Assembly: GCA_039621445.1 (NCBI GenBank)
Contig: CP154954.1
Location: forward strand, 5,805,919-5,869,918
Reading direction: 5' to 3'
Length of the DNA: 64,000 bases
DNA from: Euglena gracilis
Lineage: Eukaryota
The stretch's first letter is position 1, and each line of letters opens with the position of its first letter. The notes under the pieces are model-generated. The model saw only the letters and a list, made by a program, of their open reading frames with translations. It had not been told where the DNA came from and searched no databases. Positions 15,727 through 58,268 of this stretch are shown here, piece after piece. A program made the position numbers and the translations under genes.

Positions 15727-15951
15727 CAGACGTTCCACACAGAGAAACTCTGTGGTTGACTGGTGGTGATGATCGTACTGAGCCGTGAAACACGGTGAAA
15801 GTACTGTTCCTGGCCCCTAGCCAACCTTTAAGCAAGGATACAGTTCTCAGAAGGCTCTGTTCGGTAATCGCCGATACAACCTTTCTGGTACCCGTTTCTC
15901 TGCTTATTTGTGTGAATTTTTGGGTTTTTGCCTTTTTACCCATCTCAAAAG

Positions 15952-18900: not shown

Positions 18901-20031
18901 CCGCGGCATCGGATCGCGAATGGAAATCCATTGACTTTTGGTATGCCAAATGGTTAGCACTTGCTTCCGAAGTTGATGAACTTAGCGAGAAGCAAATGCG
19001 CGAACAATTCGATGCGGTTTTGTTGCATTTCACACCATCCCTCGTGAAGGATATCCATCGCGAGGAGTTGGCAGGGCATGAGATGAATCTTGCCCAATGT
19101 TGGAAGTTATGTGTCAAAGCAACTCAAGCTCACACAAGTTCTGGGACAAATACAGTCCGCTTTCCAAACGCATCCCACCGCGGGAATCCCTGCGGGTGCG
19201 GTTAATGCGTTGCAAAAATCATCCATGTCACCGAGATCACCCACCACGGGACCGAAAACGCGGAATCAGCGTTCTTCGGACCAGGGCACGGATAAACTGT
19301 GATTTTTGTGCAACAAATATGGTCACATGTCTCGGGAATGCCCGAATCCCGATGCGCGAAAGCGTATTGGATGCCCAAGGGGCTCGACCTCCTCACGGGG
19401 ATCGGGATCCTCAGCGTTTTTGCGTCAATCGGGAGTTTCACGTTCTTCGGAAAGCCGCTTTAGCGGTAGTAGGCCCAAGTCTCCATCGCGTGATGGTCGG
19501 GAAACCCGTCCCTCTCGCGGTCGGTGACCTGGACCCCCTACCCGAAAACGGGATTTCAATCGCGACTCTTCACGATCTCGTTCGCGAAGTGGATCATCCT
19601 CTTCGCGGGAGTCACCGGGGAAACCCCGGTACATCGGTCATGGTCGACCGTAAACCCGTTCGCCACGACGGTTTGACGGACGAACGGAATACCGTTCCCC
19701 CCGTTATGCGGAACCCCGCCACAAATCCCGTTGTTCACTTTGCGGTTCCAACGACCACCACGCATCCAAATGTCCCAGATCTCGTTCCCCCCGGCCCGGC
19801 TACGGAAATCGCGGTAAGCGCCACGATGACCGTGGTTACTCCTCCAACCGGTAAAAGGTCGGTTTCAAGATATCTTGTTTGGAGGAGGACACCCCGGCTT
19901 CGGGCAGGGAGGGGGATGAGACCTCGGACGGGGGATTTAATGAGGCCCGAATGGCGGTGCGCTCATTGAATTACATCTATTCCACCAAAAAGTCCGTTGC
20001 CGGCTATGCGGCCGGTTCGGACTTGGAGTAG
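15952..20031 (+). pseudogene. gag: Very long gag of C (~1360 codons): coiled-coil N-terminal region, capsid, two zinc knuckles with an RS-rich spacer
   Basis: ORFs 15928-17358 and 17180-18697 run into KPQWDGDPTTWRQFFRDWEYY; knuckles at ~19300 and ~19730; several stops and frameshifts. Confidence 0.85.
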
Positions 20032-20067
20032 GGGAGCCCGAGGTCCGAGGGCTCGGACCTCTGGGCT
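20029..20067 (+). promoter_or_regulatory. gag UAG stop followed by a strong hairpin; candidate read-through signal
   Basis: TAG GGG AGCCC-GAGGTCCGA-gggc-TCGGACCTC-t-GGGCT; pol ATG 20077 is in frame; conserved in A, B and D. Confidence 0.75.
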
Positions 20068-23000
20068 GATGAACAGATGGAGGTAAGACCTGATCAACCT
20101 TACCCCCCCTGCCCATCCGCCTTCACGGTCAGTACCCAGAATTATTTCAGGTCCCCCACCCCACACTCCACATTTCCGCTCGGAATGCTGAGCAAAGTAG
20201 GAAAGGGTTCATGGGAGAGCTGGCATGTAAACGTATTTCCACCAGACCCTTCACTTTGCGTACCACCAATGGAATTACTCGTCCAAGCGGAAATCCGCAT
20301 TCAAAATTTCTCCACCAAAGTTAAAATTCTCATTGACAGTGGTTGTCGCATTGCACTGCTTTTTCGGTTGGGGTTGATACCGACCCCGCTCTTGGTAAGT
20401 GCCAAGAAACCGATCAAAATTACAACCGCGGATAACACCCCCATGTGTGGTGGTGATTTGGGTTGTGTGCTCGAGATACTGTTGCCCATCATTCCGAAGC
20501 ATCACTCAAAACCCCCACAATTACAACATTTCACCAATATTTGGGTTACGAGTCCGGAATTCACGGGTCTGACGTAATTTTGGTATACCCATTTTTACGC
20601 CAGTACCGATTGGTTGTGGATTGCCACTCCCACGGTTTGCGCACAGCACCCAACACAACATTGACACCAAACCACCATCACCGCTGGCATCCGCCATGAT
20701 GACCACCACTTTACCAACACCGTTACCCACAATGGCAACACCGTTATCCACCACACCAACAACCGTTTTCCACACCCGGGGTACGGAGAAAGCCTCCCCC
20801 CTGCCCAATGACACACCAACATGCGTTCCACATGAGGCAGGGCAAGCGAGTAGTGGTACCCCCGCCGTTTCACTGGGTTACAAAACGAAAGCCCAAAGGC
20901 CTGAAGATATATCGGTGTCGAGTAGTCGCCCAGCTACACCACCACTCCGTTGCCCACCAGTTGTGCCGAATCCAGGCACACCTGTACAAGACTCACCGGC
21001 TAATGCCATCGACACCCACTTACACGCACACCCGTCACACCATCACACTGCCTACCAATGTGTGCACTGCAGGAGAATTTCCACCCAATCGGATTTCGAT
21101 TGTGGATGTTTAGTTGAAAATCCGACACTAATCACTATTCCGAATACGGAATCCACACCCCAGGATACACTTGGTTGTAGCCCGCAATGCGCGGAGATAC
21201 ACCGAGTACTCCAACAACGCGGATTAGCCTCGTTGTTCGGATACGCGAAAAGCGTTATGTCTAATCACCATCCCGAGTTCACTTGGTATGAATTTGATGC
21301 GGAATGGGGAAACCCCCAACCTGTCCAAGCTCCCTTGGGATTACCCCTTGAGGTAGTGGAAGACAACCCGCATGTTTGTGGATCCATTCATTGTGTTTCT
21401 TCACTCCAACCCGGAAATCGGGTGCTTGAATACGCGAAACGCGTATGGAATGCTTTCAATTTTGGTCAATATCGCATTTCGGAACGATGGTTTTACAAAA
21501 TCGCGACATTGGCTGATTCTTTTTATTTGGCATTGGAAATCGATGCCTTCTCATCCAATGAGCATGCCCGTTTGCCACGTCATTGGTCACGACACTCCAA
21601 CGCATTTGATAAATTTTGGGGTGATACGGTGTTATGGATGCACCCTCCCCCAAAACTTATCGAATGTGCGGTTGGGAAAATTCTGCGGGATGAAGCCCGT
21701 GGAGTTATTCTCATACCCATCATTCCGGAAGCGGAATGGTTCACCCAACTATCGTATGTGTGTTTTCATTGGTGGGATTTACCCACTAATGTACCGATTT
21801 TTGAGGATTTTTGTGGTAAAATATTACCACCCTTGCAAGAAATCATTTTTCGCGTATCTTCCTTCGATGCATTCGGAATGTCAAAATTTGCGGTGCCGAG
21901 GAAGCTCGGTAGCCCCAGGGATACCCTGGCGGTTTCCGCAGTCATCCAAAGTGCAGGTCAGCATCCTAATTCAGCCGAATTCTGTTCGCGGATCACCCGC
22001 GAATTTCACGGTGTGCTGGAAAATCCAGTATACGCGTGTGACATCGACCCCGCGATACACGGTCCGTTCGGTGTTTGTATGATCGAGCTTAAGGATGGAG
22101 CCAAGCCAATGCACCGTAAATTTTTTCGTTGTTCGGGAGAACGCGAACAAGCTCTCAATGAAATGATTGAGAAGCTTATTCAGCGCAAGTGGATCGTACC
22201 CTCGAAAAGCGAGTGGACATCCCAGGCATTTGTTGTTCCTAAACCCCTAGACCACTCAGGTCAGATGAAATGGAGACTGGTGCTGGATTACCGGTACCTG
22301 AACTCCCAAACAAGGGATGATCCCTTCCCGCTCCCCCTGATCGAGGATTTGATCACCAAACAATCGGAAAACCGGTTGTGGTCAATTTTCGATCTGGAGG
22401 ACGGTTTTCACCAAATGCACTTGCACCCTGACTCACAACCATACACGGCATTCGTGACATCCAAGGGTGTGTACCAATGGACGGTGCTCCCCATGGGTGT
22501 TAAGAATGGCCCAGCCATGTTTCAGCGCGTGATACAATGGGTTCTACGCGATTTACCGTTTGCCATTGTGTACATTGATGATGTGCTGGTGGGAACACCA
22601 CCACCATCCGCAAAATCGAGCGAGGATATCCTCGTCACACACTTCCACCATGTTTGCGCGGTATTAACCGCTTTTCAAAAACATGTCCTTTTCGCGAAAG
22701 GCGCGAAAATGCATTTGTTTCGGATACTTATAAAATTTTGCGGTCACATCCTCAGCAATGGAAAGCGGAAAGCCGCTCCGAGTAAACTTGAAGCCATTAA
22801 GAAATGGACCCCTGAGGTAATCAAAACGATTACTCACCTCAAAGGATTTTTGAGATTAGCCCAATATTACGCGATTTATATGAAGGACTTCGCGAAAATC
22901 GCGGTGCCCCTCACCAAACAGCTCAAAAACCGGGCTGTTAACAACACCAAAGTCATTTGGGATGACCAAATGCGCGAGGACCTTGAGAAAATCAAGGTTT

Positions 23001-25128
23001 TGCTTTTGGAGAATGTTGTCCTCGAAATCGCGGACCCATAAAAACCATATGTACTGGAAGTCGACAGCAGCGGTTACGCTGTTGGCGGAGTTCTTAGCCA
23101 GCATAATGCGGCGAATGAGCTCCGACCTGTGGCTTTCTTCAGCAGAAAGTTACAGGGCGACGATGGAAAAGATCAAGTCAAATGGAGTATACGCGAGAAG
23201 GAAACCTACGCAATCGTGCTTATACTCCAGAAATTCCGAAGCTGGGTACCCAGCAGCTTGTCCAGATCCTCGTCAAGACCGACCGTGAGAGTCTCCAACA
23301 CTGGTACACCGAGTATTTGAACAAGGTCATGTCATCGGTCGGAAGGCGATGCAGATGGCATGAGTTCTTGAGTCAATTCAACCTTGTGGTTATTTATACC
23401 CCTGGACACACACAAAAAGTAGCGGATCCGGTCAGTCGGGCCCCTTGGTATTACCCTGGGAATCCGGATGAGGGAGACGCGACTTTTCATGGAAGTCAGG
23501 AAGCTGACAACTACGCACGCCGAAACGACGCTGCGGATAATCTTTTGGATTCTTTTCCCGTTTCACGACTATTCCTGGTCGCACCAGTGCGCGGAAGGCG
23601 CCGACGTGGAAGCACGTCCGGACCCCGGCGTATTACGCGCACGGAGTCCCCTTCCCCACTGTTCTTTCGCGAATGGGATTATAGTGGTGACCCGGTGTAT
23701 GACACCATTGTCACCAGACTTCGTAATGGCGAAGTGCTGGACAATTACACTCTTTCACCTTTACGGTTGGTTTTTCGCAATAAATCGGGTTACAAATATT
23801 GTATTCCCCAGGACCTGGTTGATGATGTGATTTTGTGTTATCACAACCACGGTCACCCTGGGGCCCCCAAACTTCTTTCGTTGGTGGGACGCAGGTATTG
23901 CACAACCCTGTGCGAGAAAGAGCTTTACTCACGCTGTTTGCGAATAGCGCAACGGTGTCAAATTTGTCAAGCGGTAAAACCCCGCAGAGGTACCCCCCCT
24001 GGTACGATGGACTTTTTCCCTGTACCCCCTGACATTTTTACATCCCTCTGCATGGATTTTCTGGAATTAGAACCGTGCAAAGGAACGGACGACAAAATTT
24101 ACGATTACGCATTTGTTGTCGTCTGCAGCCTGAGTGGGTACATTGTAGCCATTCCATGGCAGAAGTCAGGGTTGACTGCCCAAAGTTTGGCAACTATATT
24201 TTTGGAGAAATGTGTTTGCTTAATGGGTTTACCGAATGAAATCGTGAGTGATCAAGACCATTTGATTTCTTCAAGGGTTTTCACCACTTTGTGCGGTTTA
24301 CTCGGAATCGAGCAACATTTTTCCATTATATACCGACCCAAAGGCAATGGTAGAGCCGAGGCAGCCGTGAAATCCGTCGTGAATGTGCTTCGCCTTTCAC
24401 TGGCTGACTCGCGCAGCAACTGGATATCAGTTCTACCATGGTCTTTGTTTTATATCAATACCCTACCAGGGTTGGTTTTACCTCACTCCCCCTATAAATT
24501 AGTTTTCGGACGGGACCCTCCGGCCATAGGGGATGTCCGTTCGGAGAGACCCGCCCGAACGAGTGTCAGTTGCGAGACCTGGTTTGCGGAAGTAGAAAAT
24601 CTACGTTCTGCAGTCCAGAAGTGCGTGACTGATATTCATGCAACCAAACGGAAATCGTTTTTGCAGAATTTCAAGTCACCTGTGTATAGTCCCGGTGACC
24701 GCGTGTGGGTGCAGAAAAACCGTACTCGCATGCAGTCTTCCAAGCTGGACCCCCTCTGGCTCGGCCCCTGTGAAATCCTAGAAAGACTAGGTACCAGCGG
24801 GCGTTACAAGGTTGCATTACCGATTGGTGTCGAGGACGTTCATATGGACGACTTCAAGCCATACCTGTCGCCACCGGATGGGAAACCCATCCCGTGTTTG
24901 CACTTCAAACCCCGTTCCAGATTACCTGAGACGGACGACTTTGTAGTCGAAAAAATTATCGATCACAAAATCGACAAAGGTATGCACCATTGGAAGGTCC
25001 GCTGGAGAGGGTATGGGCCCGAGGAGGACACTTGGGAACCAGCAACCAGTTTTGTTGGGTATGTCCAGCAAGATTGGAAGCTGTGGAACAAGAAGCATAA
25101 CATTGATGTTTCCATGACAAGTTTTTGA
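20032..25128 (+). pseudogene. pol: pol of C: PR - Cys module - Dam-like MTase - RT - RNase H - integrase - chromodomain
   Basis: ILIDSGC; IDAFSS...LWMHPPP; YIDD ~22571; HNHGHPG/CQIC; LCMDF, IVSDQD, GRAE; C-terminal chromodomain VEKIIDHK...[17 protein letters not shown]. Confidence 0.94.
21460..21875 (+). other. Dam-like (N6A/N4C-type) DNA methyltransferase domain between protease and RT
   Basis: QYRISERWFYKI...LEIDAFSSNEHARLPRHW...NAFDKFWG..VLWMHPPPKLIECAVGKILRDEARGVILIP...EWF resembles the DIRS-type MT pattern IDLFA..N...DAF..W..Y(A/N)PPF.LI..L.KI....LI.P.W..PWF. Confidence 0.72.
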
Positions 25129-25290
25129 GAACGCATGGGAAACCCATGTTGTTTTCTCTTCTTTTTATAATTGATTCTTATCATTCTTTCTTTCCGCAGA
25201 CTTTTTAGCAAATAATACTCAAGCGGTTACCCTTACACACCTTACAACCAACAACCCAAACATCCCACCGTACCGACCCCGGGCGGTATC

Positions 25291-28200
25291 ATGCTGCCCG
25301 GTGGAAGGGAGCCAGGCGGAGGACCGCCTTACCACCCCACCACTCACCCTCAAACTGACCAGTATGCGTACCGATACGGTACGCAGCCACCTACACGGAC
25401 TGCGACTCAGGGAAACCCTGAAGCCAGCAGCAGTAGCAGGATGACCCAGATGCCCGCGGAAGCGCGGCCATCTCAGCCATCAGGCTCTCGTCGCCTCCCA
25501 CCGTATGCGGGTGTGATGATCCACCGCACGGCGGAGACGATGAGCCGGGTTATGCGTATGAGCGCAAACCCGGCACCAGACCAACTCACCCAGGCATTGT
25601 GGGATGACCACTGCCGTAAAATGTTGACCATCGCGAATACCCCTCCGGCCCTGTGGTGTATGTGCGCCCAGGCGACGATGACCGGTCTTGTGTATTACAC
25701 CGACCCGGACGCGTCGGGATTCGCGGCGGACATTACCGTGCGTGACCTGGGCGTGGAAGTCCCGCCACAGGTAGCACGGCAGGTACCACCAGTTGGCACT
25801 TACACCGCACATTTTCGTGCTCACTCCCCCGGATTACCCGAGGAAGAGACAGTGGAAGCACCTGTCCGGAGTGAACACCCACGTGTGAAAGAAAGTATTT
25901 TTGGATCCCCTGAGCGCAAGCCCCGGCGGGATTATCCTGCACAGGAGCCTGTGTCTCAGTACACCGTCTCTGGGGATTACCCCCGGGAGGCGCCAATGCC
26001 ACGGGATCAGTACGTGTATCCACCTCAACCCCACCCAACCATACCTGACCCTATCCCACGACGTCCTGCGGAGGGAAACCCTCCCCCGACGTCTGAGGCG
26101 ACCCGAAGCGCTCGTCCGCGGGAAGCCGCGGCAGCACCTCGTGCGGCACCAGTTCCCCCGGCACGGGATGAACCCGTTAACCCGTGGACTTGCCGGCCGT
26201 TCGAGACAGAGGAGGAGCGTCAACGGTATGAATATGCTGTGACGATCCAACGACAAATCGCACGTCGCCCCCCTGTTTCCGCTGGCCAGGGATACCCTGC
26301 CCGGGCGGAAATGACACGGGAAGAGCGCCAGCAGTATGATGCTGCTGTGTCAGCTCTCACAGGCGTCCCAGCTCCATCACGATCAAGTCAACCAGCGCGA
26401 CAGCAGGACGTTGCTGTGGCGGAAGCGTACCAGCACGACCCACAAGCTCTGCCGCCGGCAAGCGTGACCGCGGCCCGGAAAATCTGACGCCGCAGCCACA
26501 GCGCCGCTCGCCGAGGTCGGAAAATCCGCCCGCGACGATGCACGTCGACGCTGAGGAGGAAGCTCCACCAGCGCCGGACGTGACGGCAGAACGGGCACGT
26601 CGGGAAACCCGACCATCCCTAGTCGCACCGGCTTACTCGAATCGTGGTGACGCTGAGCAGGAATTTGCTCGAACGCCAAGCACGGAATCCGTGACTTACC
26701 CAGTGTTTACGCCAGAAGACCCAGAATAGTGGGATTACTGGGCGACATTCGAATGGCTGTCTAACACAAAGGTTAAGGGTAAAGGCAAGGGCAAGGGTAA
26801 GGGGAAAGGAAAAGGCCAGGAGAAAGGTGGGAAAGCCCCACCTGGCAAAGGCGGAAAAGCCGCTTGGCCAACTCCAGGTAAAGGCGGAAAATCTGCCGGA
26901 CCCCTAGCAGGCAAGGGCGGAAAAGCCGCCGAACCTTCGAAAACGAAGGACGATGACTTTACTGTAGTTTTCACCTACCTGCAGGAGATTTGGCCGAAAA
27001 TCGACGAAGATCTCCGACAGTTTACACACGCAAGCAACGTGATCCACCGACCACCGGATGCGGTGCTCGAAGTGGTGCAGAATCGTATATACGATCACTG
27101 CAAACGTTTTTCCTACAGTTCAGAACTTTATGCGTTTGAGGGATACCCTCATTCGGATGAAATAGTCCTGGACCGGATGTCCGGTTTCTGGGAGCTGTGG
27201 TTCTGGTTGGGATACCCCTGCCAGAACTTCGGCATCTTTACCGACCAACACGGTCATACGTATGCCGACTGTTTGGGAACATGCCTGACGACGAAACGTT
27301 CGTAGCACAGTTGAAGGAAATCTTCAACCACATGTATTCCGTCGGAGCACTGGGAATCCAGTGGAAATATTACCCCCTGCCGGAGAAACTCCTTGCGCAG
27401 GCTGCGGTAATGTTCACACACAACCTCCAAGTATACTTGGACAGCATGTATGGCACGCTGTTCAAAATGCTGGACATCGACCTCGCGTACCCCCAGCGGT
27501 ACAAACTGGAATGCCAGTTTTGCAAGGAAGTTCACATTGCTGACTTCTGGGGTTTCGGAGAACGCGGAAAACCGCCTCCGACTGCCGAAAGTGCCGGCAG
27601 CCAGCCGACCAGGAGATTCCTCCTGCATCAGTGCCGGAATCCCCAGATTGGGACACAAGATCGAAAGGTGCTGAAACGGCACCGGCAGAAAATATTTCTG
27701 CTACAACAGTACCGGCACAGGGCGTGGATTACCTACGTCCTGGAAGTCTACATTTATTTCCTGGAACAGATGACCACTGATGTCGATATCCACAGGAAGT
27801 GGTTACCTCGGGGATACACCGAGGTGGACGCCAGACCTCATGACTCAGACCGACGCAGGATGAACCTGCGGCCGGAATGGGAGCAGGCAGAAAGTGGCCT
27901 GCGGGATCACCTGGACACCTAGTTCGGGGATATCCTCGACTGGAAGGAGTTCGAACCTTTCTTCGCAGCACGCGAGGTAAGTCACACTCGGTATGCGGTC
28001 CCATTGCCCGCTTTCCTGGAAGACACAGGAGAGCAGGGTATGGGATGGAACCTTCGATCGCAGTGGGAAGACCTCTGCCTGATCAACGAGGACGAGCCGC
28101 AACCTCCACTCGGAAGCTGGGTGAGGGCGTCGTGGCCGCCTCCTTACCCCAACTCTGACAGGAGTGAAAGTATAAGCTTTTACCGCCTGTCCGACGCACA

Positions 28201-30720
28201 AGGGTGCTACAGAAGCGGAAAGGACCCGCGCACTGCAACACAACTCCACACAGAGGACTACCCTCCGGAAGCGGAGGAGGAGGAAGAAACGGTCCCTATG
28301 GCCGAGGATGAACCTCAGCCAGTGGAACCCCCGGCACGGGAAACCCGTAGCCCATCGGTCGTGATGCTGGACACTGTGGCAGAAACTGCCCAGCGCCCAG
28401 GATCGCCGACAGGTGAAATGACGCCTGTCCCACTGTCGCCAGCCTCACTGGGTACGACGGGCAGACCGACCCCTCCGCGGGAAAACCCGCCGGAGACGGT
28501 GCCCCACACGCCTGAGGTATTACGCCTCAAGCTCCCTGTTCCCGGGGAAACCCCGTTAACAGAGGAGCCAACCGAGGAGCCCACTTCAGGTGAGGAACGA
28601 CGCACCTTGCTAGGCGGACGCGTACTCGGTGGTTTGCGGTCACTCATCGCAGTTGTCACCCCACGTGGCACAGCGGCCAGTTCTTCCACAGCTGCGGCGG
28701 AAGCTGCCCAGCCGACAGAAGACACACATGACACAACAGCCATGGTGGAGGATGAACCTCCCCCAGCGGCGGCGCCACCGCCGGTGTCGGAAGCGACACG
28801 GACGGAAGGCGAACAGACAACAATGGCAGTGGAGACAACAACAACCGTGTCGGTACAGGATGAACCTGTATCAGCACCGGTAGCGCCAGCCGAGGCACGG
28901 GATGAACCCGCACCTCAGCGCACAGCCATAGCCACTGCACCAAAGCGTCCGGGCACACTGACACCGGCGCCTGAAAAGCAGGCCAAGCGGACGTCCATGC
29001 CCCCACCACAGGCTCAACCAGTACGAAGCGTGCCGGCCGAGCCTACACCCACACCATCCCCCACGGCTGCCTCTGGGAAACCCACGGAAGCCGCGAGGGA
29101 ACGCGTAGGACGGCCCCCAGCCCGGGAAACCCCTGCTGAAGGTCAACGACGCTCGGTGTCGGGGAGAAGACCCCCGTCCCAAGCGTCACCACGCACCTGG
29201 GCAAGCAAGCGCGACGCCGATCGGCGGCCCTCGGATTCTCCGGAAACCGGAAGCCCGAAGGCCCCGGCAAAATCAAAGCCGGGCGCCGCACCTTGTAAGC
29301 CCGCACCGAGATCTGGTGATCAGCCCCCACCGAAAGGCGGTGGTGGTACTGGCGGCCAGAGTGCTGCATCCTCCTCTCGGGGATTAACCTCGGGACAAGG
29401 ATTCACGCACGTCACATCATCCGGCTATGGGAAAACCTCACAGCCGAAACCTTCGTCAAAGGGGCAGGGAAAATCCCGCGCCTCAACAGCCGAGACACCT
29501 TCGGAAGACGAAGTTATCATCGACTGGAACGCGGTCAATCAGGATGATCCTGAGATTCATGACCTGAAACCCAGGTACATGATGATCGACCACAAACTGA
29601 GGACACAGCAATGCCCCAACCGGTGGATTGAGCCACTGTTCTGTCAGGGCCGAAAATGGTCCTTTGATCAGAACGTGACCTGGAATTATTACAATTCCAG
29701 ATCTCCCCGTGTTTTGGCCCAATACTTCGGTGAGGAATTCCTCATCGAAAAGACAACGGAAAACCGTTTTGTGTGGCTTTGCACTGTATGCCACAAGATG
29801 TATAACAGTGCACCTGACCTGGGATTACCCCTCGTCCATGTGTGCAACCCTGTGGATCGGAAATCCTTCCATAAGGATGTATACATCCCTAACTGTGCCG
29901 CCTTGGTATGCGCCAAGTGCGTGGACAGTTGGACCCACAAGCACAATTTTAGCTACACCGAGCGAGACGGTACGAATGTACCGATACTCTGCGTCAACTG
30001 CCTTCGAGGTACCTTCTGGCACACTGCGGAAGGCGCAGTACCCGCAATCGTGCCAAGTGCCGAGAAGCCACTGGAGGAATACTCCACCTTGAACAAAAAG
30101 TTCAAGGACTTTTCAAGTATGCCAACCTCAAACTCGACGACTACCGCCACACCGGAATGGCCCGTGGGTGGCAGATCGACGGTGGGGCGATACGCCTCGC
30201 CGCTGAGGAGGCAGGGGTAAGATTACCTTACCTCTGGGAGACAGCAGACAGGGAAAAGATACTTTTCCGCCTGTTCCAAAACCAGGACCGAAACGGTCGC
30301 TGGTGTCTGCCACAATGGCCACCCGAAAACCACGGGATGACCTGGAAAGACTGGCTTGGGGCCGTATTACGACCCCATACAGTCCGCGCAGAATGTGCGT
30401 ATCACATGCCGATTGACTTCCACCCAGGGAATGCCCCGCAGGTGTCAGCCAATCACCCAAGGATGAACTACTTCATCTGGCCAGCAACTCTGCCCAGGAA
30501 ATTCTGGGAGTAGCTGCAGTGGTTCCTCGCGGAAAGAGCGAGTGTAACCAAGCACACAGTCCCCGAAGGATGGGTTCGGGACTGGGTGGCACCTGATTTC
30601 GAATACGAATCGCCAGAAACCTGGCTCGTAGATAGGCCACCACCACCACAATTCCGGATGGTCCTTGTGGAAGATCCCTTGGATTCCCGCCATGATTATT
30701 GGCGGCTGGAACGGATGTAG
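25291..30720 (+). pseudogene. ORF3 of C, ~1810 codons, unknown non-env accessory protein with three conserved folded regions
   Basis: ORFs 25291-26487, 27039-27305, 27197-27922, 28004-30220 and 30157-30513, plus continuation to ...LVEDPLDSRHDYWRLERM* (TAG 30718-30720); homologous to ORF3 of D, B and E. Confidence 0.85.
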
Positions 30721-31622
30721 TGCCGAAACGGCATTACCAGGCTCATGTAGGGTAAGTGCTTTCATGGAGCCTGGACATCCATATACTATATATATATACA
30801 CTGGTAGCGGAAATCGCTCAACAGCCCTGGGATGAACCCGGGTCTGTGTCATTCTGCGCTCTGGATGGAAGCATCCAAGAGCCCTCCCTCCCACCGCCAC
30901 CAGCCACCCCTCTGCCCGTGGCCATGCGGACGGAAACCGTCTGCAAGAGGTAATCGCCTCTTATTGCATCGTGAAGGAGCTACTGCTGTGAAGACCTTGG
31001 CAGCCGGGAAACCTGGCAAGCCGCTAAGTGACGCACAGCACACAGCGCGCACGCCGTAATAATAGGCCAACTTGTCACTTTTCGGCCCTAAGGCCTCTTA
31101 AGGCTGCCAGACAGAAAAAATTCTGTTCTGGCCTAAGCCAGCCCCCCTCTCCTCCCTACTTCCCCCCCCCCCCCCCGCAAAGCTGTCGCCGGCAGTCGGT
31201 TTTGTAAGTAGGCTTTTGTTTCCTAGTGCGGGTATGACCGCCTAGGAGCCCTATCCGGGTATGACCAGGATAGGAGCCTGCCCCCCCCCTTCCACACCTC
31301 TCCCCTCGGGTTTTCAGCGAATCGCTTGACCAACCCCGCGTGCCTTTGGCACACCCAAAGTGGGTGGATGGGACACTTTGTCAGGAAACCTGCCAAGCCC
31401 CGTTTCCCACAGTGGGCTTTTTCACACCCCACCTAAGCCGAAACGGCTAATAGGTAACCGCGAAACGCGGCTAACCTTTTGCGCGTTTTTGGGCTTTGGG
31501 TGGATGCCACTGTGCGGAAAGGAGAGACACCGAATGGAGAAGTGAACCCCACCTGGGGCAGCGTCAGATATCCTGACTGGACTGGGAAACCCTGGTCCAT
31601 GAAGGAAATCGGGCGTAGCCCT

Positions 31623-31632
31623 GGGAGAGGGA
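31623..31632 (+). promoter_or_regulatory. Polypurine tract of C
   Basis: GGGAGAGGGA immediately before the 3' LTR. Confidence 0.8.
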
Positions 31633-32067
31633 TGTGTACCAGGCACGGCCCAGCTCTGTAGGATATCTGCAGAGTGGGTTCTGTGACGGTCGCACCACTG
31701 TGGAAATCCACAGCTGGTAAGATCGTAGCAGACCCTTCTGGGATCTGCCCCTGGACACGTCAGCACTTTTCTCTCCTTCCCCCACAGGTGGTATTCTTCA
31801 CTGTCATTCTTCCAAAGTTTGACCATTGGTTTTGTCAGAGGGAAAAACCCTCGGAACATTCGAACTTGATCTCAGAAGAAACTTCTGAGTCTTTGCTTTG
31901 TGCTTTGCTTCTTGGGGAATTAGGAAGAAAAGGGGAAAACCACTTTTCGTTACTCCAAATACTTTTCCCTACCATAAGTAATAAGTAGGCTGCGCACCAA
32001 GGCGAAAGCGAAAGGCTTTTACAGAAAGTCCCAAAAAGGGGAAAAGGGAAAGCTTTGGACGTACACT
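31633..32067 (+). repeat. 3' LTR of C
   Basis: Direct repeat of 15207-15641, followed by TSD GTATC. Confidence 0.96.
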
Positions 32068-44952: not shown

Positions 44953-47531
44953 TCTTCCTCCCAGGGCTTTGCCCGATTTCCCCTTTGGACCAGGCATTCT
45001 GGCCACAGGGATTTCGGACACAGACCTGGTCTGTGGGAGGTGCACCCTGGCGCATCCACGGGGGCCCTTTCCGTCGCACAGGGGTCCACTCAAAGGGAGG
45101 GGGGGGGGAAAGGAGGGGACCCAAAATGCCAAAAACGCGCAAAATGGTTTCACCTATTCTGCGGTGGCTTATGGGTATATAGTATATTATAGCCCACTGG
45201 GGAAAATGGGGCTGGCAGGTTTCCTTGCCAAGCAAACCCATCCACCCAGTTTGGGTGTGCCCAAGGCACTTGGGGTTGGGTCCATGGGCATTCCAGGAAA
45301 ACCTATGGGGAGGGTGTGGAAGGAGAGGGCCTCTGACCAGTCAAACCTGGGCAGGGCGCATGGCCAGTCAAACCTGACCACGCAAAAGGAAATCCTACTA
45401 TACGAAACCAACTGCCGGGGACAGCATTTGCCCCGGGGGGAGAGTAGAGAGGAGTGGGGGGTTGGCTTAGGCCAGAAAAGTTGTGCTGTCTGGCAGCCTT
45501 ATGGCCTCAAACGGCCGAGAAGAAAATAAAGGGAAAGGAAAGAGGCCGTCGGCCCTGTGCGCTGCGTGTAGCACGCCCGCGAGAGGGGAGGGGAGAGGGG
45601 TGTGCATGCATGCGCACGGAATCCTGCACATGGCAGCATCCCGGTGGGAACTTACTAGCGGCGAATACCGCAAAGGGTCTTCGAAGGGGTTGTTCGGGCG
45701 AATACCCAAAAAGGGTGTCAGGCGAATACCTGACGAGGGTTCTGAAAGCCGCCGCATTGGCGCTCACAGACACCTCACCTGCCTTTATCGGCTGGACGTT
45801 CGCGCACCTCACGCCAGTAGTCGTGTTGGGGGTCCCCTAATGGGTCCTCAACCAACTCCAGTTGGCGTGTGGAACGCGGCGTAGCTGATTCACTCCGAAT
45901 GGTGTTGAGCTCCGGATCGTTGGCACCAAAGGAAGGGGTCTCCCAGTCCTTGATCCAATTATCCGGCAGCTTCTCCCTGGTACGTTCAGCATGATGCTGA
46001 AGATACCGTTGGAGCTGCTCCCAGAAAATTGTGGGCAGCATCACCGGCCAGATGATGTAATTCATCTGGGGGTGATTCGCAGGCACCTGCGGGGGCATCC
46101 CCGGGGTCTGCTTGAAGTTGATGTCATGTATCCACCTCGCTGTCCGAGCTCTTGCGGTATGGCGCCGTAATACAGCCGCCAACCAACCTCTGAAGTCCAC
46201 CAAATCGTGTTCTTCAGGAGGCCACAGTGGCAAGGCGTATCCGCCATGCTGACGCTTGGAGAACAGGGGGTAAACCTGTGTCTCCCAGTCGCCATCGGTT
46301 CAGAGGTAAGGCATTCTTACCTTGGCGTGTTCCTCGACGGCGAGGCGCATTGCCCCAGCGTTGATCTGGAACTCACGGGCCATTCCCGTGTGGCGGTAGC
46401 TTTCTACCTTGCGGAAGTCGGAGTGCTTCAGGCGGCCTTCCACCTGTTCGTACTCCTTCTTCCACTTCTCCATTGTCTCCCAGTGGTGGGGGACAATGGT
46501 GGTGACTGCTGCATCAGCAGTCTGCACGAACTTGGCCCCTATACAGTTGATGCACAAGGCAGGGATATCCCTGTCGTGAGCATTCTCACTGTAGGAGTAG
46601 TTCAAGCTGTGCTTCGAGGCGCTCAGGCACTCGCCACATACGAGCGCCACACAGTTCGGCACATATGCCCTGTGATGGAACCACGAGGATTGCACCTGCC
46701 GCTTGCACACATGCACAAGCGGTTGGTTGTGCCGCACATGGTGGCACACGGTGCACGTCCAGGCAAAGGACGTGCCGTGCTGGAAATCCAACACGCAGTC
46801 CTCACAAAGTACTGTTCCAGTACTCTGGGTGAGCGCCTATTCCAGAATGTCCAGGTATGTTCCGGGACATAGTGGAAAGGTTCTCCTCGGACGAAGAGGG
46901 GCTGAATCCATCGATTCAGTGACCCTTTCTGGTGCCTAATAGCAGCCAGTTTCTTCGTCCTCTCTTCCACGGTGCCTAGTCTGGTCAGGATATCCTGAGT
47001 CCAGAGCTGGGCATCCGCAGACACAGGAGGTGAAGCAGGTTCGTCCTGCTCCTCATCCGTCGATCCGGCGGAAGACTGGGCCTGTCGACCACGAGCCTTA
47101 CCTTTCGGTTTGCTCTGGCCGTACCCGGACGATGCAACGGCCGAATAGTCGTGCATTGTCGTAGGGCCTTTCGGCTGTCATCCAGTCTGACCTCCAGCGC
47201 CACCTTTCGGTGGTGGTTTCCCATCACCGCCTTTGGCAGGGGTCTTACAGGGTGCAGCACCCGGTTTGCCTCCTTTCGGCTTCGCACTCCCGGAATCAGG
47301 AGGCGATGCCTGCGGCTTACTCCTGGTATCAGGAGCCGATGGTGACGGAGTAGACGCTTGCCGTCTGGGCGAAGCGGGCATGATGGCCGCTGCGTCACGC
47401 GTGACGCTCCGAGGAGTGGGCACTCGTTCCTGGGGTTGTTCAGTCTGCTGCCGCCGAGCAGGTTCATCCCGTCCGACGGGGCGTGGCACTGTGGTCGTTA
47501 CCGGAATCGGTGCTTCCACAGGTGCTGATAC

Positions 47532-49204
47532 TGTGTGCGGCGCCAGGTTTAAAATTTAAAAACCCAAAATTGAATTAGGAGGCGCCTATCCTAATTACAA
47601 AATCTCTATTTTTGCAGCTGCAACTGTCCTGAACTCTTTGACTCAAGGAAGGCCTGAACGCCAGATGAAGATTTCAAGTCTTGGTTTGTGCTATGCTGAA
47701 GGAAAGTGAGTGCTGCTGGAAAGGAAAAGTTTTCAAGTTTGACCCCCAGTGGGTACAAGGAGAAACTCAGAAAACACAAAGAGTTCAATTGTTGCTCAAG
47801 GCCTGGAGGCCAAAAGTCAGCCAGTTTGGCCAGAAGAAATGGACATTTCAGAAAGTGTCAAGTCAGGGATTGTCAATGATGAAAAAATCTGGGAAAATCA
47901 ATGCTGCAGAAAACTTGGCTGGAAATCTGAGCTGTATGCAGTAAAATTTCAGTATGTTGTTGAAATCATTGACAGATTGTAATTGAAGACCCCCAACATT
48001 GATGCATTCAGTTTGGAAGAAAGCAAGATATTCAAATGCTGGTGGGGACCTGGGTCACAATTTGTGGAAGATTCCTTCACAGTGAAGTGGACACATTCCA
48101 TTGTTGGATTGTTGTGGTCAAGTCCCCCCTTCAGCCTCATTGCAAATGTCATCCGCAAGCTGAAGAAGGATCATGGTCATGCGGTGTTGGTTGTCCCAAA
48201 GTGGGTTACTGCCCCCTGGTGGGAAGATCTTCAAGACATTGTTGTCAGAATGCTGGAGTATCCTTGTGCCACGCCGTTGTTTGAGTTGGTTGGGGCAGGG
48301 TTCACAGTCCCCCCCACAAAATGGCCAGTACAAGTGGCATTTGTCTGTGGAAGGATAAGTCAATGTTTCAAATTGGCAAAAGTTCTCAATCCAATTTCAA
48401 GTTCAGCAAAAAGGAGAATGAGGAGGCAAAAGATGAAAAGAGGGTCCTCCCCACAAGTGCACCTTAGGCTCCAGGTCGGCACAGGGGACAGCCCAAATTT
48501 CAGTGATTCAAGTGGTGAAGTCTCTTTGCAATGATTGTGTGTTCAATCTGAGCCCCCTCCTTGCGAAGTGGGCTTTGAGTTTGTGCTGGCCAGTGGCCCA
48601 GGCCCAGGGCCCAGGTGGGAGAACCGCTACAAGGGGGCCTACCCACAGGCCCTGGGACTCCCCCTGGCAGCCCCCCACTGGCCCTCTCATCCCAGGAGTG
48701 CCCTGGGGAAGGTTGGGAGGGGGACCAACCTTTCCCAGGGTGCCCCAAGGGCTCTGGGGTGGGCTGGTGGCCCTGTGGCCCCCCTACTTGTGCTGGACAT
48801 TGTTGGACTAAATCCCTGTCAGCTGTATTATATCCCTGACTCAGCGTTCAAAAATTTAAAAAAAACAAATTTCAGCCGCCCCCCCCCCCCAAAAAAAAGG
48901 CCAATTTTGGCGCCGCAAAAAATTGCCGAAGGCAGTGGGCACGAAGTGTCCAGAGAGGGGTGTGTGGGCGGCGCCAGGTTTAAAATTTAAAAACCCAAAA
49001 TTGAATTGGGAGGCGCCTATCCTAATTACAAAATTTCTGTTTTTGCAGCTGCAACTGTCCTGAACTCTTTGACTCAAGGAAGGCCTGAGCGCATGAAGAT
49101 TTCAAGTCTTGGTTTGTGCTATGCTGAAGGAAAGTGAGTGCTGCTGGAAAGGAAAAGTTTTCAAGTTTGACCACCAGTGGGTACAAGGAGACACTCAGAA
49201 AACA
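47532..49204 (+). mobile_element. Non-autonomous LTR-like mini-element G (TRIM-like, 1.67 kb) carrying a methyltransferase-like ORF
   Basis: ~245-bp direct repeats 47532-47776 and ~48963-49204 (TGTG...AACA); 4-bp TSD ATAC at 47528-47531 and 49205-49208; purine run AGAGAGGGG before the right repeat; empty site visible in B at ~6670. Confidence 0.88.
47749..48534 (+). pseudogene. Dam-like DNA amino-methyltransferase domain (one in-frame TAA at 47980-47982)
   Basis: ELYAVKFQYVVEII..PNIDAFS..WWGPGSQFVEDSFTVKW..LLWSSPPFSLIANVIRKLKKDHGHAVLVVPKWVTAPWW, with a motif IV-like SPPF. Confidence 0.78.
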
Positions 49205-52200
49205 ATACACCCGGAAACTCTCCCATTGTCCGTGGGACGGCAGGGATCCTGCGCGGTGTCGGTGGTCGTGGGGGTATTTCTTCCACTTCCATTTTGACAT
49301 CCGGTCGAGGAGGTTGATCCTCCACAACCGCTGGCGCAGGTGCTACGGGAGGTTGATCCTCCGTTGTAGCCGTTGCGACAGATGTCTCTGTCGGTTGGGG
49401 TTCATCCCCTGAAGATGGTTGCGCTGCTGCCGGAGGTGGGGGTGCCGGGACACCGATATCCGGCGTCTCCACAACCTCAGTGGCAGAGCTTGATGCTATG
49501 CCTCCACCTCGTGGCGTTAGTGCAGAAGCCACGGCAGTAATGCCAGTGACGACGGCGCCGAGCACACGGCCTCCTAATGAGGTGCGTGCTGTGGGGCTGG
49601 CAGGTTCTTCGAGGGTATCCTCGATGACCATACCAGTCACCTCAGCTTCAGGCTCAGCCGCCGGGAGAGGCGTTGCAGCCACAGGTATATCCCCTGTGGG
49701 TGCTTCGTCTGGCCGAGGCTGTGCTGGGGCAGGCAGATCAGCGTAGAGGATAGCCTCCACGTTCTCGCCTTCCTCCTGAGGGAGTTCCTCGTCTCCACCT
49801 GCCGGTGGACAGACGGGAGCCGCGGCCGCGGGGGCCGGGGAGACTGATCGTTCCCCTGCCGCCCGTGGGGCAGAGACGAAGGATACAGCCGTCCCTGTCG
49901 GAGACAGCGGCGCTGCCTCCAGGATAGTGACGGAGGGGCTGCGGTCGCGATCCTCTCGCCGCGGAATCGCGGTGGTGGAAGCGACTGACTCCTCACGTCT
50001 CCTTCGCGCCAGAGGTTCATCCTCCGGGGCGATGAAGGCGCGCAGATCCTCGGGCGAACGCGGATCGTCGGGGTGCCATCGGCATCCCTGAGCATCCGCC
50101 AGCCTGTAAAAGGCCAGCGTACTGCTGCGGGGCTGTTGGGCCAGGGTGGCGGCCATGATGGCTGCACCCAAGCGTTGGCAGGCCTTTTTGGGCCCAGAAC
50201 ACCGCCGTAGCGCGTGTTTTCCCAGACGTCGAAAACGCCCTCCTCGAACTCCTGAACGCATGCCAGAATCGGCATACGCTGTTCGAGGATGGCCTCCGGG
50301 TGACACATCAGCGGGAGGAGTACCTCCCGGTCGAGGGTACCGCCAAACTGTCGCCGCAAATGTTCCTCCATGTTGATATCAGCCAGGTGCCAGTTGGGGT
50401 GCAGGTGGCCGAGAATCCGACGACAAGGGCCCTCGATGGCGTCACCGTAATTCGGTGGCAGGCTTTCCATACCAGGCCTATCGTCCTGGGGGTCACGGAG
50501 ATGTATATACACCTCCATGACATAGGTGGTCCAGGCTCGCCACCAGAACTGCTGCAGCATAAAAATACGCTGCTTGTGGACGCGGCGACTTTTGCCCTGG
50601 ACATCCGGGGCGTCGCGGCACACATGCATAAGCATGCGGCGTCCCATCTCCAGGCCCGGGTTTTCCCGAGGCGGTGGAGGACTTCCGCGCACGCCTAATC
50701 CCCAGAAGTCGACAGGAAATTCCTGCCGGCAGTACTTACAACAGAGGTCATACCTCTGCAAGCCAGGGAAATGCGCTTAACGCGGAAGGTGGAGCCGTAA
50801 TGGCTCACCAGCCACACCTGGAGGTTGTTGCACCACAACACCTCGATCAGGCGTTCGATGTCGGGGTGTAGTGGGTAGAATTCCTACTGCACGCCGAGGG
50901 GTCTGACTCTATGAATACAGTCGTAGATTGCCTTCAGCCTTCGGGCCAACACACGCTGGTCCCGAAATCTCAACTGGTGCAGGTAACTGCGACCAGTGGA
51001 GTCGCTGAAGAGACCCCAGTTCAGGCAGGGGTATCCCAGCCAAAACAAGAGCTCCCAGAAACCCGGCTGGGCATCCAGCAAAGGTCTGCCACCTTCACCT
51101 TCGAAGGCTTACAGATCTCTTCCGTAATGGAATAGTCTGACTCTGTTCTCGGTGTGGCGTAATACCACATCGATGACTGCTTGTGGAGGGGTGACGGGGC
51201 GGTTTCCTGCAATATGGTAACCATGCTGCATTCGCCAGCCTTCGTCCTCCAGCTCCTCCTTGCACCTGAGCATACGCTCAAAGTCCGAGAGGACTTCTGC
51301 TGGTTCCTCTTCCTCCTCACGTGCTGTTCCCTTACCTTTACCCTCACCCTTCCCTTTGCCGGCCACGCCTTTGCCTTCTCCCTTGCCTTTGCCCTCAGCC
51401 CAGCCTGTGTCCTTTCCCGTCTGGGGAATACCAGAGGGTCGGGCGCTCGGTGCCGCCGGAGTCGGTTCGGTTCCTTCCTATTCCATCTCTGGGGAGGGAC
51501 CTGGCCGACCCGCTGCACGTCGCGGTGACGGCGTGGCTGGGGGTTGGCTAGGAGTCTGGCGTGGGCTTGGCTTCGGCGCAGGTGGTCGCGGCTCCTTCCA
51601 TACCGGAGGAATCGGCGGTGGTATTGTGGCAACAGGACGGCTCATCGCCACCTCTGCCTCTGCCGGTGGTTTTCCAGCCGGGGTTACCTGGCTGGCTTCC
51701 ACCTGCATCGCCACACCGCCTTCCGCGTCCCGTGGGCTGGGTCGCCTGGGCTGTGGGGTAAGGTTCTCCGTAGTCCTGTCGCGCTTCAGGGTGGCAGGTA
51801 ATACTGCCACACCTGCCGGGGGCTCGCCGGGTAATACCGGGGTTGCCACCCGCAGCTGCGGCTGGTACGGATGGCATGGGGTGTATCCACGGCCTGAAGG
51901 GCAGCCAGAGAGGAGTAATACCTCGACCGGTGCTCTTCAGACACGAATACTGGCTCCTGCAGGAAGTGCCGAGCAAGCTCATCCTGCTCGGTTTCCGGAG
52001 GTGCCATGTGATAGTAGGGAGTCTCCTGCCGACGGGGGATATCCCCAGTCTGGACCGGAGCTGCACTGGGCGGTCGGGCTGCCACACGGTGGGGAGGTTC
52101 ATCCTCCACCACTATGGGCTCCGCCTGCCGCCGTGGCTCAACGCCAGGGACAGGGGCGACCGGTGATGCCTGTGGCATCCAGTGCATGAACATGTGTTGA

Positions 52201-56100: not shown

Positions 56101-58268
56101 TCCAGTACACCATGAAATTCGCGAGTAATTCGCGAACAATAGTCAGCAGACTTTGTTGGTCCGCACTCTCAATGACCGCAGAAATCTGCGTTGAGGGTGT
56201 GGCATCCCCCTTGGTACCAAGGTATCTTGGCACACGCACATCGGATATTCCGAATGCGTCAAAGAAACAAACGCCAAAAATTATTTCTTTAACCGGTGGT
56301 AATAATATACTGGACGTCCTCAATCCCGTTGCGCAAGGTAACTTTATATCGCCCGCTACTACCTAACCTCTCCAAAATTTCGCATGGGCCGAGCCAAAGA
56401 GGATCTAGCTTGGAGGATTGCATGCGGGTGCGGTTATTCCGTACCCACACGTGGTCACCTGGACTATACACAGGCACAAAAATCCTCGAATAGTGGTACA
56501 TCAGCGGGTAAATCCCACCAGTGGAAACACACATGGGATAGTTGGTGAAACCAATCCGCATTCGGATTGACGGGTATGAGGAGAGCTCCTCGCGCTTCAT
56601 CGCGGAGGATTTTCTCCACCACATCCGGGAAAAAGTTCGGGAGAGGGTGCATCCAGAGCACCGTATCACCCCAAAATTTCAGAAATGCGTTGGAATGTCG
56701 CGACCAATATCGTGACAAGCGCGCATGCGCTTTTGATGAAAACACATCAATTTCTAATGACAAATCGAAGGAATCAGCCACAACCGCGATTTTGGAGAAC
56801 GATCCCTCCAAAATTCGGTATTGACCAAAATTTAATGCGTTCCATACGCGCATCGCGTATGTGTCGACCTGGTTCGCGGGGTGAAGAGCAGTAACGCAAT
56901 TCAGGGATCCGCAAACATAAGTCAAGGGTGTTTTATCCACTCTCCCTAGGGGCATTCCTCAATGTTGATGGGTTGGATGGGTGTATACCCAGTCCATATC
57001 ATGCGAGATGGAGGTGGGGGAGGTGTGTGACACGGATTTCGCTGTCCCAAACAACAAGGCAATACCTCGTTGTTGGAGCACTTGATGTACGGTCGCGCAT
57101 TGCGAACCGCAACCAAGTGTATGGTTGCGCGAAATCGGGATTATTGTTGGTGTTTGGACTAGGCATCCACAATCGAAATCTGGCTGGGCGGAAATTCTCC
57201 CTCAGTGCACACATTGGAAGGGAGTGTCGGAGTAGTGGTCCTGGTCGCGCACGTTGGTCTGGTGGGGGTGTGTGTAAAAGTCGGGATGCGCTGTTGTAGC
57301 TGCTGGGGGGTGTACAGATGTATCTGAAAGCGATACATCTGGTGGAAAACGGGGTATTGGTGCAGCTGGGCGACTACTCGACACCGTACGTACTTCAGGC
57401 CTTTGGGCTTTCGTCTTGTAACCCAGTGGAACGAGGGGGGTACCGCTACTCGCTTGCCCTGCCTCATGGGGAACGGAAGTTGGTGTGTCAATGGGCAGGG
57501 GGTGAACTTTCTCGGTACACCCGGTGTGGAAAACGTTGGTTGGTGTGGATGGTAACGGGGTAATATTTTTTGAAATCGGTGTGGAAATATTGGTGGTCGT
57601 CGCGGTTGACGCCACGGGTGCTGAAGGTTTGGGGGGCAATGAAGAGAATGGTGATGTGCGCCAACCGTGGGAGTGGCAATCCACTACCAGCCGGTGCTGA
57701 CGTAAAAAGGGGTATCCAAGAATTACGCCAGAACCATGGATTCCGGATTCGTATCCCCAGGTATCCGGAAAATTTTGCGTTTGGGGGGGGTGTGAGTGGT
57801 GCTTGGGGATGAGGGGTAGGACAATGTCCAAAAAGCATCCCAAGTCACCGCCGCACATGGGGGTGTTGTCAGCCGTCGTAATTTTGATCAGCTTCTTGGC
57901 TTTCACCAAGAGGGGGGTTGGTATCAACCCGAACCGAAAAAGTAGTGCAATGCGACAACCAGTATCAATGAGAATTTTGACTTTTGCACTACAATTTTGG
58001 AATTTGATTTCCGCTTGGACCAAAAGTTCAATGGGGGGTAAGCAAAGTGAAGGGTCTGGCGAAAATACGTTTTCTTCCAGCTTTCCCATGATCCCTTTCC
58101 TACTTTGCACAACATTCCGAGCGGAAAGCTGGAGTGGGGGGTGGGGGACCCGAAAATTTTCCGGGTACCGACCAGAAAGGCAGATGGGCAGGGGGGGCGG
58201 GGTTGATCAGGTCCTACCTCCATCTGTTCATCAGCCCAGAGGTCCGTTCCCTCGGACCTCGGGCTCCC
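53162..58268 (-). pseudogene. pol: pol of D (PR, MTase-like domain, RT, RH, IN, chromodomain), degraded
   Basis: ILIDTGC; LEIDVFSS..LWMHPLP; YIDD; EVDSSDYAVGG; chromodomain [17 protein letters not shown]. Confidence 0.93.

Follow-up and report, generated by a model that had tools for sequence, protein, structure and literature searches.

What does a lone methyltransferase gene mean when it lies between two long terminal repeats (LTRs)? This question is raised by a unit of 1,673 bp in a 64,000-nucleotide stretch of the Euglena gracilis genome (contig CP154954.1 of assembly GCA_039621445.1, positions 5,805,919 to 5,869,918 of the forward strand), in the following referred to as the window. Large Ty3/Gypsy chromoviruses with reverse transcriptase (RT), RNase H, integrase, chromodomain, and CCHC gag lie nested in the window, and the proline-rich 5' region of one chromovirus copy harbours, in opposite orientation, the small unit, here called the mini element; in a paralogous copy, this region lies in frame upstream of gag. 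Judged by sequence comparison, the only gene of the mini element belongs to the DAM family of eukaryotic retrotransposons, which resembles the Pfam family Dam (PF05869). With a probability of roughly 70 %, we consider the mini element to be a decayed member of a non-autonomous family of LTR retrotransposons in which the sole gene encodes a stand-alone DAM-like adenine methyltransferase, and whose members would be self-primed and mobilised by a partner.

Limits of the Mini Element and the Insertion Event

The 1,673-bp unit was inserted as one piece and is flanked by a 4-bp target-site duplication. Its direct repeats (245 and 242 nt, with TG...CA ends) differ by 7 substitutions and one 3-nt indel, that is, by about 3 %; the purine run AGAGAGGGG precedes the 3' LTR and ATAC stands on both sides, which agrees with the repeats, ends, polypurine tract, and duplication described in an earlier note made from the letters of this stretch alone. 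The same note had pointed to an empty site in a second host copy (copy B), and the flanks of the mini element are indeed 89-92 % identical to positions 6475-7664, where the paralogue runs uninterrupted through GCTG-GCAC-TCCCAG. Contigs from four public runs (X1, X9, and X13, all DNA, as well as X15, whose RNA label is a guess) were furthermore compared with the region. The joint expected of an empty site (47527->49205), which skips 1,677 nt (1,673 + 4), was found in two contigs of X1 and in one each of X9 and X13. Target duplication, empty paralogue, and empty-site joints in three of the four runs together argue for a single-event insertion with real limits and against a chance arrangement. 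The unit thus combines the features by which LTR retrotransposons are recognised, namely paired direct LTRs with TG...CA ends, a short target duplication with a corresponding empty site, and a primer site plus a polypurine tract. No second match to the mini element or its LTR was found elsewhere in the 64-kb window.

A Single Gene, Broken in the Window Copy

The claim that gag, RT, and integrase are missing withstood closer inspection. Five further internal ORFs (open reading frames) had no Pfam match at E <= 1, and tblastn with eight host ORFs and 13 family proteins revealed no remnant of gag, protease, RT, or integrase; only the DAM part was matched, the best matches beyond its frame (E 0.009-0.044) falling into low-complexity or antisense stretches. 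Having neither RT nor integrase of its own, the element is non-autonomous. The DAM ORF carries the motifs IDAF, DSF..W, LWSSPPF, and LVVPKW..PWW as well as one stop (TAA), all of which had been described before. Behind this stop (47983-48534), it is 96 % identical to P0001, a stop-free protein of 284 aa that was retrieved by database search from another source (on a contig of 1,460 nt) and reads ANPPF instead of SSPPF. An interpretation of that contig as one LTR-to-LTR period (1,431 nt) plus assembly overlap was dropped as unprovable.

The stop is private to the window copy, since contigs of the other runs have a sense codon at this place throughout: position 47980 is G instead of T in 13 contigs of X1, 10 of X9, 4 of X13, and in the X15 contig, and position 47981 is G in 13, 11, 3, and 1 contigs, respectively. 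Copies free of this stop, including P0001, thus exist outside the window. The motif tells a similar story. Whereas the earlier note had rated SPPF a better catalytic motif than that of the large elements, it turned out to be a decayed NPPF: in other contigs, 48118 T>G and 48122 G>A change SS to AN, as seen in two contigs of X1 (310.8 of 400.4 depth) and in one contig each of X9, X13, and X15 (entire depth). The window copy accordingly reads S-P-P-F where the family has an Asn-Pro-Pro-aromatic motif (N-P-P-F). Among the listed changes private to the window ORF, nearly all alter the residue (from the window copy to the other contigs: K>S, K>E, N>D, the stop, I>R, SS>AN, L>P, and R>G), next to a silent one. 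As its domain is interrupted by a stop, the asparagine of the motif is gone, and its LTRs have diverged by about 3 %, the window copy is dead and supplies no enzyme itself. Its basic tail (AKRRMRRQKMKR) resembles a nuclear localisation signal and may serve as such.

Some smaller observations concern the reading frame. Positions 47738-47742 hold five C in the window copy, and P0001 and the X15 contig have six; the sixth C would join a reading frame of the LTR to that of DAM. In most other copies, GTG stands in place of the ATG at 47693. Upstream of the ATG, P0005 and P0015 seemed at first to be homologous, but this was rejected, as the N-terminal parts proved unconserved on alignment.

Fold and Substrate of the Methyltransferase

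The earlier note had suggested placing the ORF by profile search and phylogeny, which assigned it to a large, mostly PF05869-like family and to a clade apart from the DAM domains of the host chromoviruses (see below). The window ORF itself matches P0002 with an E value of 2.7e-18, the identity to P0002 and P0003 being 33-38 %. A profile built from P0001, P0002, and P0003 retrieved 5,836 cluster representatives at E <= 1e-3, of which 970 remain at E <= 1e-10 and 105 at E <= 1e-30. In a Pfam scan of 37 relatives, 34 matched Dam PF05869 at E <= 0.01 (best 2.8e-8), three the C5 DNA methylase model, and two RVT_1; when ten relatives were scanned singly, nine matched PF05869 and three reached its cut-off of 28.1 bits. 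Each of the three motif residues N, P, and P is conserved in at least 90 % of 91 relatives (21-45 % identity). The ESM Atlas yielded unnamed eukaryotic clusters only, one of them with PF05869 on 11 % of its members. A peculiar case is P0133, which combines Dam with an A3-type protease and a C5 DNA methyltransferase (DNMT) and for which NCBI gives Genlisea aurea, a carnivorous plant, as the organism; either protists caught by the plant contaminated the sample, or the element may be borne by the plant itself.

P0001 was modelled by AlphaFold2 with 90 relatives as input, and the model reaches pLDDT values above 90 over most of residues 80-235. In the Protein Data Bank (PDB), Foldseek ranks human PCIF1/CAPAM (E 1.3e-4) as its top match, with KsgA and DOT1L next. 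VIA-align, covering 48,161 chains, ranks zebrafish PCIF1 first (Z 11.0, root-mean-square deviation 3.0, 138 residues), then RNA adenine methylases (KsgA, DIMT1, Erm, METTL5; Z 8-8.9), T4 Dam (7.8), and EcoDam (7.5). According to this model, the DAM domain has a Rossmann methyltransferase fold with PCIF1/CAPAM as closest relative, and the PF05869-matching relatives likewise speak for the methyltransferase that the earlier note had proposed.

One may accept the structure of the element as described here and still doubt that the protein writes N6-methyladenine (6mA) into DNA; it would then modify RNA adenosine (cap-adjacent or internal) or merely bind nucleic acid or a host factor. We regard this as the most serious alternative, albeit a rather unlikely one. 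It gains from the order of the fold matches, in which PCIF1/CAPAM, KsgA, DIMT1, Erm, and METTL5 stand ahead of T4 Dam and EcoDam, and from the work of Iyer et al., who group the DIRS1 domain with PCIF1, in agreement with our fold matches, derive it from there, and think it inactive (PMC4738411). Moreover, the single published activity test of eukaryotic DAMs, carried out in E. coli and reported in a preprint by Fernandez-Moreno et al. (bioRxiv 10.64898/2026.05.21.726589), was negative for 6mA. However, the conservation of N-P-P argues for some kind of catalysis, profiles tie the family to the phage-type Dam PF05869, and DAM-LTR copies are reported to carry more 6mA (preprint 10.64898/2026.05.21.726589). 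The structural scores (Z 7.5 to 11) do not discriminate between these substrates.

A Multi-Copy Family of the Same Short Build

Contigs of X15 cover 47617-48433, those of X13 48123-48734 and 48705-48988, and those of X1 48477-48853, all with the same order of parts, and many contig variants in the other runs indicate multiple copies. The notion of a separate non-autonomous LTR family, put forward in the earlier note, is hence supported by multi-copy contigs that keep the order of parts and by the absence of replication genes. In a tree of 153 DAM domains (quick method with SH-aLRT support only; the truncated host copy C and a hit shorter than 120 residues were not included), the window copy and P0001 fall together (support 100) inside a separate clade of 66 rows (support 99). 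The nearest relatives are P0012, P0022, and P0072 (38-45 % identity; clade SH-aLRT 94), proteins of 193-242 aa with an own Met, the domain, and a shared basic tail (S.KRR.R.Q). As far as the sequences tell, the stand-alone DAM architecture is thus old.

These data bear on a second alternative, namely that the mini element is a one-off or recent internal deletion of an autonomous DAM-LTR element with the same LTRs, and that the DAM ORF survived by chance and without a role. Such deletions are the usual origin of non-autonomous LTR elements, and autonomous relatives do carry DAM inside pol (P0156 with the order DNMT-protease-DAM-RT-integrase; P0090 and P0125 with DAM and RT). A contig of 1,299 nt from X9 also fits: it has polypurine tract and LTR start in common with the mini element and continues upstream into unrelated sequence. 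However, the same order of parts in contigs of three other runs and the existence of stand-alone relatives at 38-45 % identity argue against a one-off deletion. Like these relatives, the ORF is equipped with a Met, a stop, and a basic tail of its own, and no trace of protease, RT, or integrase was found beside the domain; that no long close relative of P0001 turned up among longer proteins is weak evidence in the same direction. Altogether, we consider a mere deletion product improbable. The X9 contig may instead represent another element with the same LTR and, as such, a candidate for the autonomous partner.

Primer Site and Transcript Start

No TGG-starting primer-binding site follows the left repeat, as had been noticed before; the letters at this place are CAAAGAGTTCA. 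The reverse complement of positions 47777-87 is identical to TGAACTCTTTG, which occurs at 47630-40 and again at 49061-71 in the 3' LTR. The 11-nt complement has three matches in the window against 0.07 expected (64 kb, both strands), and both the minimum-free-energy and the centroid fold of 47618-47800 pair 47620-40 with 47777-96. The host chromovirus termed element D served as control: it has no complement of at least 8 nt at offsets 0-7 and a TGG primer site instead. The missing TGG site may therefore be explained by a Tf1-type self-priming complement, whose function is suggested by its sequence and position.

Self-primed reverse transcription is known from Tf1, Tf2, and Tj1, and the Tf1/sushi and Tcn1 groups are predicted to use it as well (PMC4600332, PMC6317226). 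Like these elements, the mini element is devoid of a tRNA primer site, and the letters behind its LTR are complementary to the upstream LTR transcript, with an 11-nt core and a flanking stem. It differs in that the complement starts 13 nt past the apparent 5' processing site and not at the first base, as in Tf1, and in that there is no RT or integrase by which it could be placed in the Tf1/sushi clade. The target duplication of the mini element is 4 bp. That of Tf1 is 5 bp.

The apparent processing site stems from run X15, which covers only 47617-48786 of the region. Here, depth is 14.1 over the element but only 0-8 over the host flanks, the opposite of what is seen in the three DNA runs, and there is no cover over 47536-47611 and 48828-49207; this fits a transcript, though it proves nothing alone. 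A contig of 827 nt, with 23 letter differences and one gap relative to the window copy, opens with TTTTTTTTC and continues with the G of the AG at 47616-17. In Euglena gracilis, the spliced leader has TATTTTTTTTCG as its conserved 3' end (PMC4778363). This single contig is thus probably a leader-trans-spliced mRNA and points to a euglenid host, in keeping with the Euglena elements of preprint 10.64898/2026.05.21.726589. A variant of the LTR that lacks 47 nt (47570-47616; joint 49000->47617 in X1, X9, and X13) has its deletion end exactly at the putative leader-acceptor AG.

Proposed Life Cycle and Points Against It

The mini element has retained the signals that an LTR element needs in cis: its LTRs end in TG..CA, a polypurine tract is present, and a primer site adjoins the 5' LTR. 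An autonomous partner outside the window, which generates 4-bp duplications, would supply the proteins for copying and integration. The family mRNA would receive a Euglena-type spliced leader at AG 47616-17 (one contig), two letters before the self-primer stem. As in Tf1/sushi, the 5' part of the RNA (47620-47640) would fold onto 47777-47796 and be cut to yield the primer. The protein, a putative Rossmann methyltransferase with NPPF pocket and basic tail, would modify adenine in the nucleic acid of the element and thereby benefit it; conceivable substrates are cDNA or an RNA:DNA hybrid, following the 6mA model of preprint 10.64898/2026.05.21.726589, or RNA as for PCIF1.

Several points weigh against this scenario, to which the negative E. 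coli assay and the presumed inactivity of DIRS1 domains mentioned above have to be added. Neither P0001 nor the window ORF (E <= 10) has a Pfam match, and no PDB sequence matches two family profiles at E <= 10, so that the assignment as methyltransferase depends on relatives and predicted fold. No autonomous partner emerged from the LTR search in the window, two scans of metagenome contigs (with P0001 and with an exact 22-nt LTR word) were empty, and the search for longer proteins gave no long close relative of P0001, which is again weak evidence. The 1,299-nt contig of X9 shares only 48899-49066 with the mini element, and hence other internal sequences occur behind the same LTR. Intact copies of the family could simply be young. 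With regard to replication, the stretch 47618-47800 as a whole folds no better than shuffled sequences (z -0.58), the evidence for the leader consists of nine letters of one contig from a run whose label is a guess, and the X15 contigs stop short of the 3' LTR and may thus represent mRNA only and not the template for copying.

Relation to the Host Chromoviruses

Could the mini element descend from the chromoviruses around it, or serve them? The pol ORFs of the hosts do contain a homologous DAM domain before RT, so that the statement of the earlier note on a common domain type holds. Over the three longest matches, these domains are 25-27 % identical to P0001, their motif reads HPPP, HHPP, or HPLP in place of the NPP[FY] of the family, and three host copies form a clade of their own in the domain tree on a branch of 2.6 substitutions per site. 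Judging from these sequences, the host domains may be inactive or repurposed. Among the hosts, only element D lies in the window with both ends; its LTRs measure 435 bp and its target duplication (GTATC) 5 bp, and it carries a tRNA-type primer site (TGGTAGCAGAA) and the polypurine tract GGGAGAGGGA. As LTRs, type of primer site, and length of the target duplication all differ, the mini family and the chromoviruses share no replication machinery, and the DAM identity and tree position indicate, in accordance with the earlier note, that the mini-element DAM is not derived from the host chromoviruses (elements A-F). The hosts were also considered as EpiLTRs, i. e., elements with DAM, DNMT, and chromodomain; the evidence does not bear this out, for no DNMT was found in the host ORFs of the window.

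The earlier note had contemplated methylation in trans: as a helper, the family would provide active DAM for the chromoviruses of the window, whose own motif has decayed to HPPP. The different host motifs, set against NPPF in the mini family, and the long branch of the host clade are in line with this idea, yet nothing ties the mini family to elements A-F as clients and the window copy is dead, which renders such a role quite improbable. Finally, a domesticated host gene family caught between two solo LTRs, as might be suspected from the seemingly leader-trans-spliced mRNA and the short ORF that is complete in other copies, is hardly credible given the single target duplication around the whole unit, the empty paralogue, primer site and polypurine tract that abut the LTRs, and a multi-copy family with many variants.

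Comparison with Known Elements and Significance

DAM-carrying LTR elements were first described in 2026. The preprint by Fernandez-Moreno et al. (May 2026, bioRxiv 10.64898/2026.05.21.726589) reports DAM inside Ty3/Gypsy elements, including a DAM-LTR/DIRS group of Euglena gracilis, describes EpiLTRs with the combination introduced above, and takes DAM-only sequences, which amount to 46 %, as degenerate remnants. The mini element shares with DAM-LTRs the DAM family, the NPP pocket, and LTR carriers; the chromoviruses of the window are of the DAM-LTR kind (DAM before RT, chromodomain), and relatives within the family combine DAM with RT, protease, and C5 DNMT. The known DAM-LTRs, in contrast, are autonomous with DAM inside pol, whereas the mini element has DAM alone between its LTRs. 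The terms 'non-autonomous', 'self-prim', and 'PCIF1' do not occur in the text of preprint 10.64898/2026.05.21.726589, supplements aside.

Among non-autonomous elements, TRIMs (terminal-repeat retrotransposons in miniature), LARDs (large retrotransposon derivatives), and TR-GAGs likewise keep LTRs, target duplication, primer site, and polypurine tract and are multi-copy (PMC13570524). Lacking RT and integrase, the mini element would depend on a partner as they do. With 1.67 kb, it lies between TRIMs (<1-1.5 kb) and LARDs (>4 kb), and as a unit of 1,673 bp with an ORF of 231 codons it falls outside the strict definition of TRIMs (<1-1.5 kb, non-coding). TRIMs and LARDs carry no coding sequence and TR-GAGs have retained gag (PMC13570524), whereas the mini element keeps the gene of an accessory enzyme.

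Further parallels concern the domain itself. The DIRS1/PCIF1 group represents the same domain lineage, the best structural match being the methyltransferase domain of PCIF1 (6irx, 6irw; Z 11.0). Unlike DIRS elements, however, the mini element has a target duplication and direct TG..CA LTRs and no tyrosine recombinase, and PCIF1 shows no match to the DAM family at the sequence level. Relatives align with the phage-type Dam PF05869 over approximately positions 4-125 of 169, including NPP[FY], but these matches are marginal (three of ten at the cut-off), and the window ORF has none.

DAM-LTRs, non-autonomous LTR elements, and self-priming are thus each known separately. An LTR element with DAM as sole cargo was not found in print in our literature search, supplements of the preprint aside. 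The mini element shows that some 'orphan' transposon methyltransferases travel in a stripped-down mobile unit of their own, and the way in which DAM-only sequences are counted in surveys should change accordingly. Non-autonomous elements normally retain only what they need in cis; a family that keeps DAM alone and has relatives of the same build at 38-45 % identity therefore argues for a benefit that the DAM protein brings to the RNA or DNA by which it is encoded. In practical terms, the mini element offers a minimal 1.4-kb test system with one gene and one LTR pair, and its self-priming site and leader acceptor are testable handles on LTR replication in a trans-splicing host.

More speculatively, and with little expectation on our part that it will hold in full, a long-lived 'TR-DAM' class may be envisaged in which replication genes were discarded and DAM was selected, to which many of the 46 % orphan DAMs would belong, and in which leader trans-splicing within the LTR would set the 5' end of the self-primer. 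If true, marking its own nucleic acid would outweigh any replication protein for a hitch-hiking element, and host mRNA processing would be coupled to the start of reverse transcription in a euglenid host.

Features of the Window and Further Observations

Table 1. Coordinates of the mini element, its parts, and related features of the host chromoviruses (positions in the window).
Feature	Position	Strand	Remarks
Whole mini element	47532-49204	+	1,673 bp; direct terminal repeats, TG...CA ends
Left target-site duplication ATAC	47528-47531	+	GCAC at empty paralogous site
5' LTR	47532-47776	+	245 bp, TG start, CA end, 42 % G+C
Probable spliced-leader acceptor inside LTR	47616-47617	+	AG after T-rich run; one X15 contig
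Self-primer segment	47620-47640	+	core 47630-47640 TGAACTCTTTG, complementary to letters behind LTR
Putative self-priming-type primer-binding site	47777-47796	+	core 47777-47787 CAAAGAGTTCA, directly behind 5' LTR
DAM-only ORF	47839-48534	+	231 codons + stop (48532-48534); broken by TAA 47980-47982
DAM-like methyltransferase domain	47917-48384	+	equals P0001 residues 80-235; TAA inside, past N-terminal helix
Motif IV	48118-48132	+	SSPPF in window copy, ANPPF in family
Basic tail AKRRMRRQKMKR	48406-48441	+	behind domain; conserved in stand-alone relatives
Non-coding 3' internal region	48535-48962	+	59 % G+C; hairpin near 48697-48744; C/A run 48879-48898
Polypurine tract AGAGAGGGG	48952-48960	+	purine run, 2 nt 5' of 3' LTR
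3' LTR	48963-49204	+	242 bp
Right target-site duplication ATAC	49205-49208	+	
Empty target site GCAC in paralogous host copy	6675-6678	+	
Host element D	15207-32067		16.9-kb chromovirus nested in another copy; 435-bp LTRs 98 % identical
Host DAM-like domain before RT in pol	21467-21838	+	
Host DAM-like domains before RT in pol	2335-2709, 56485-56823, 14131-14313	-	

The 3' internal region folds no better than shuffled sequences (z -1.26), and Rfam gave sub-threshold hairpin-like matches only (48590-48972). Its G+C content of 59 % compares with 45 % in the ORF; further features are a hairpin of 19 bp near 48697-48744, a C11/A8 run at 48879-98, and, at 48851-71, a 21-mer resembling the start of the LTR, and the length of the region varies in X13. 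Turning to the hosts, the paralogous copy on the minus strand (4333-9696) has a CCHC gag in frame with about 1,300 proline-rich residues upstream, with three stops, and the mini element lies in the stretch of its own host copy that matches this proline-rich region. Element D contains, upstream of gag and downstream of the chromodomain, several long ORFs that have no Pfam match, as well as a coiled-coil ORF (17150-18697) that matches NPV_P10 at 1.6e-8.

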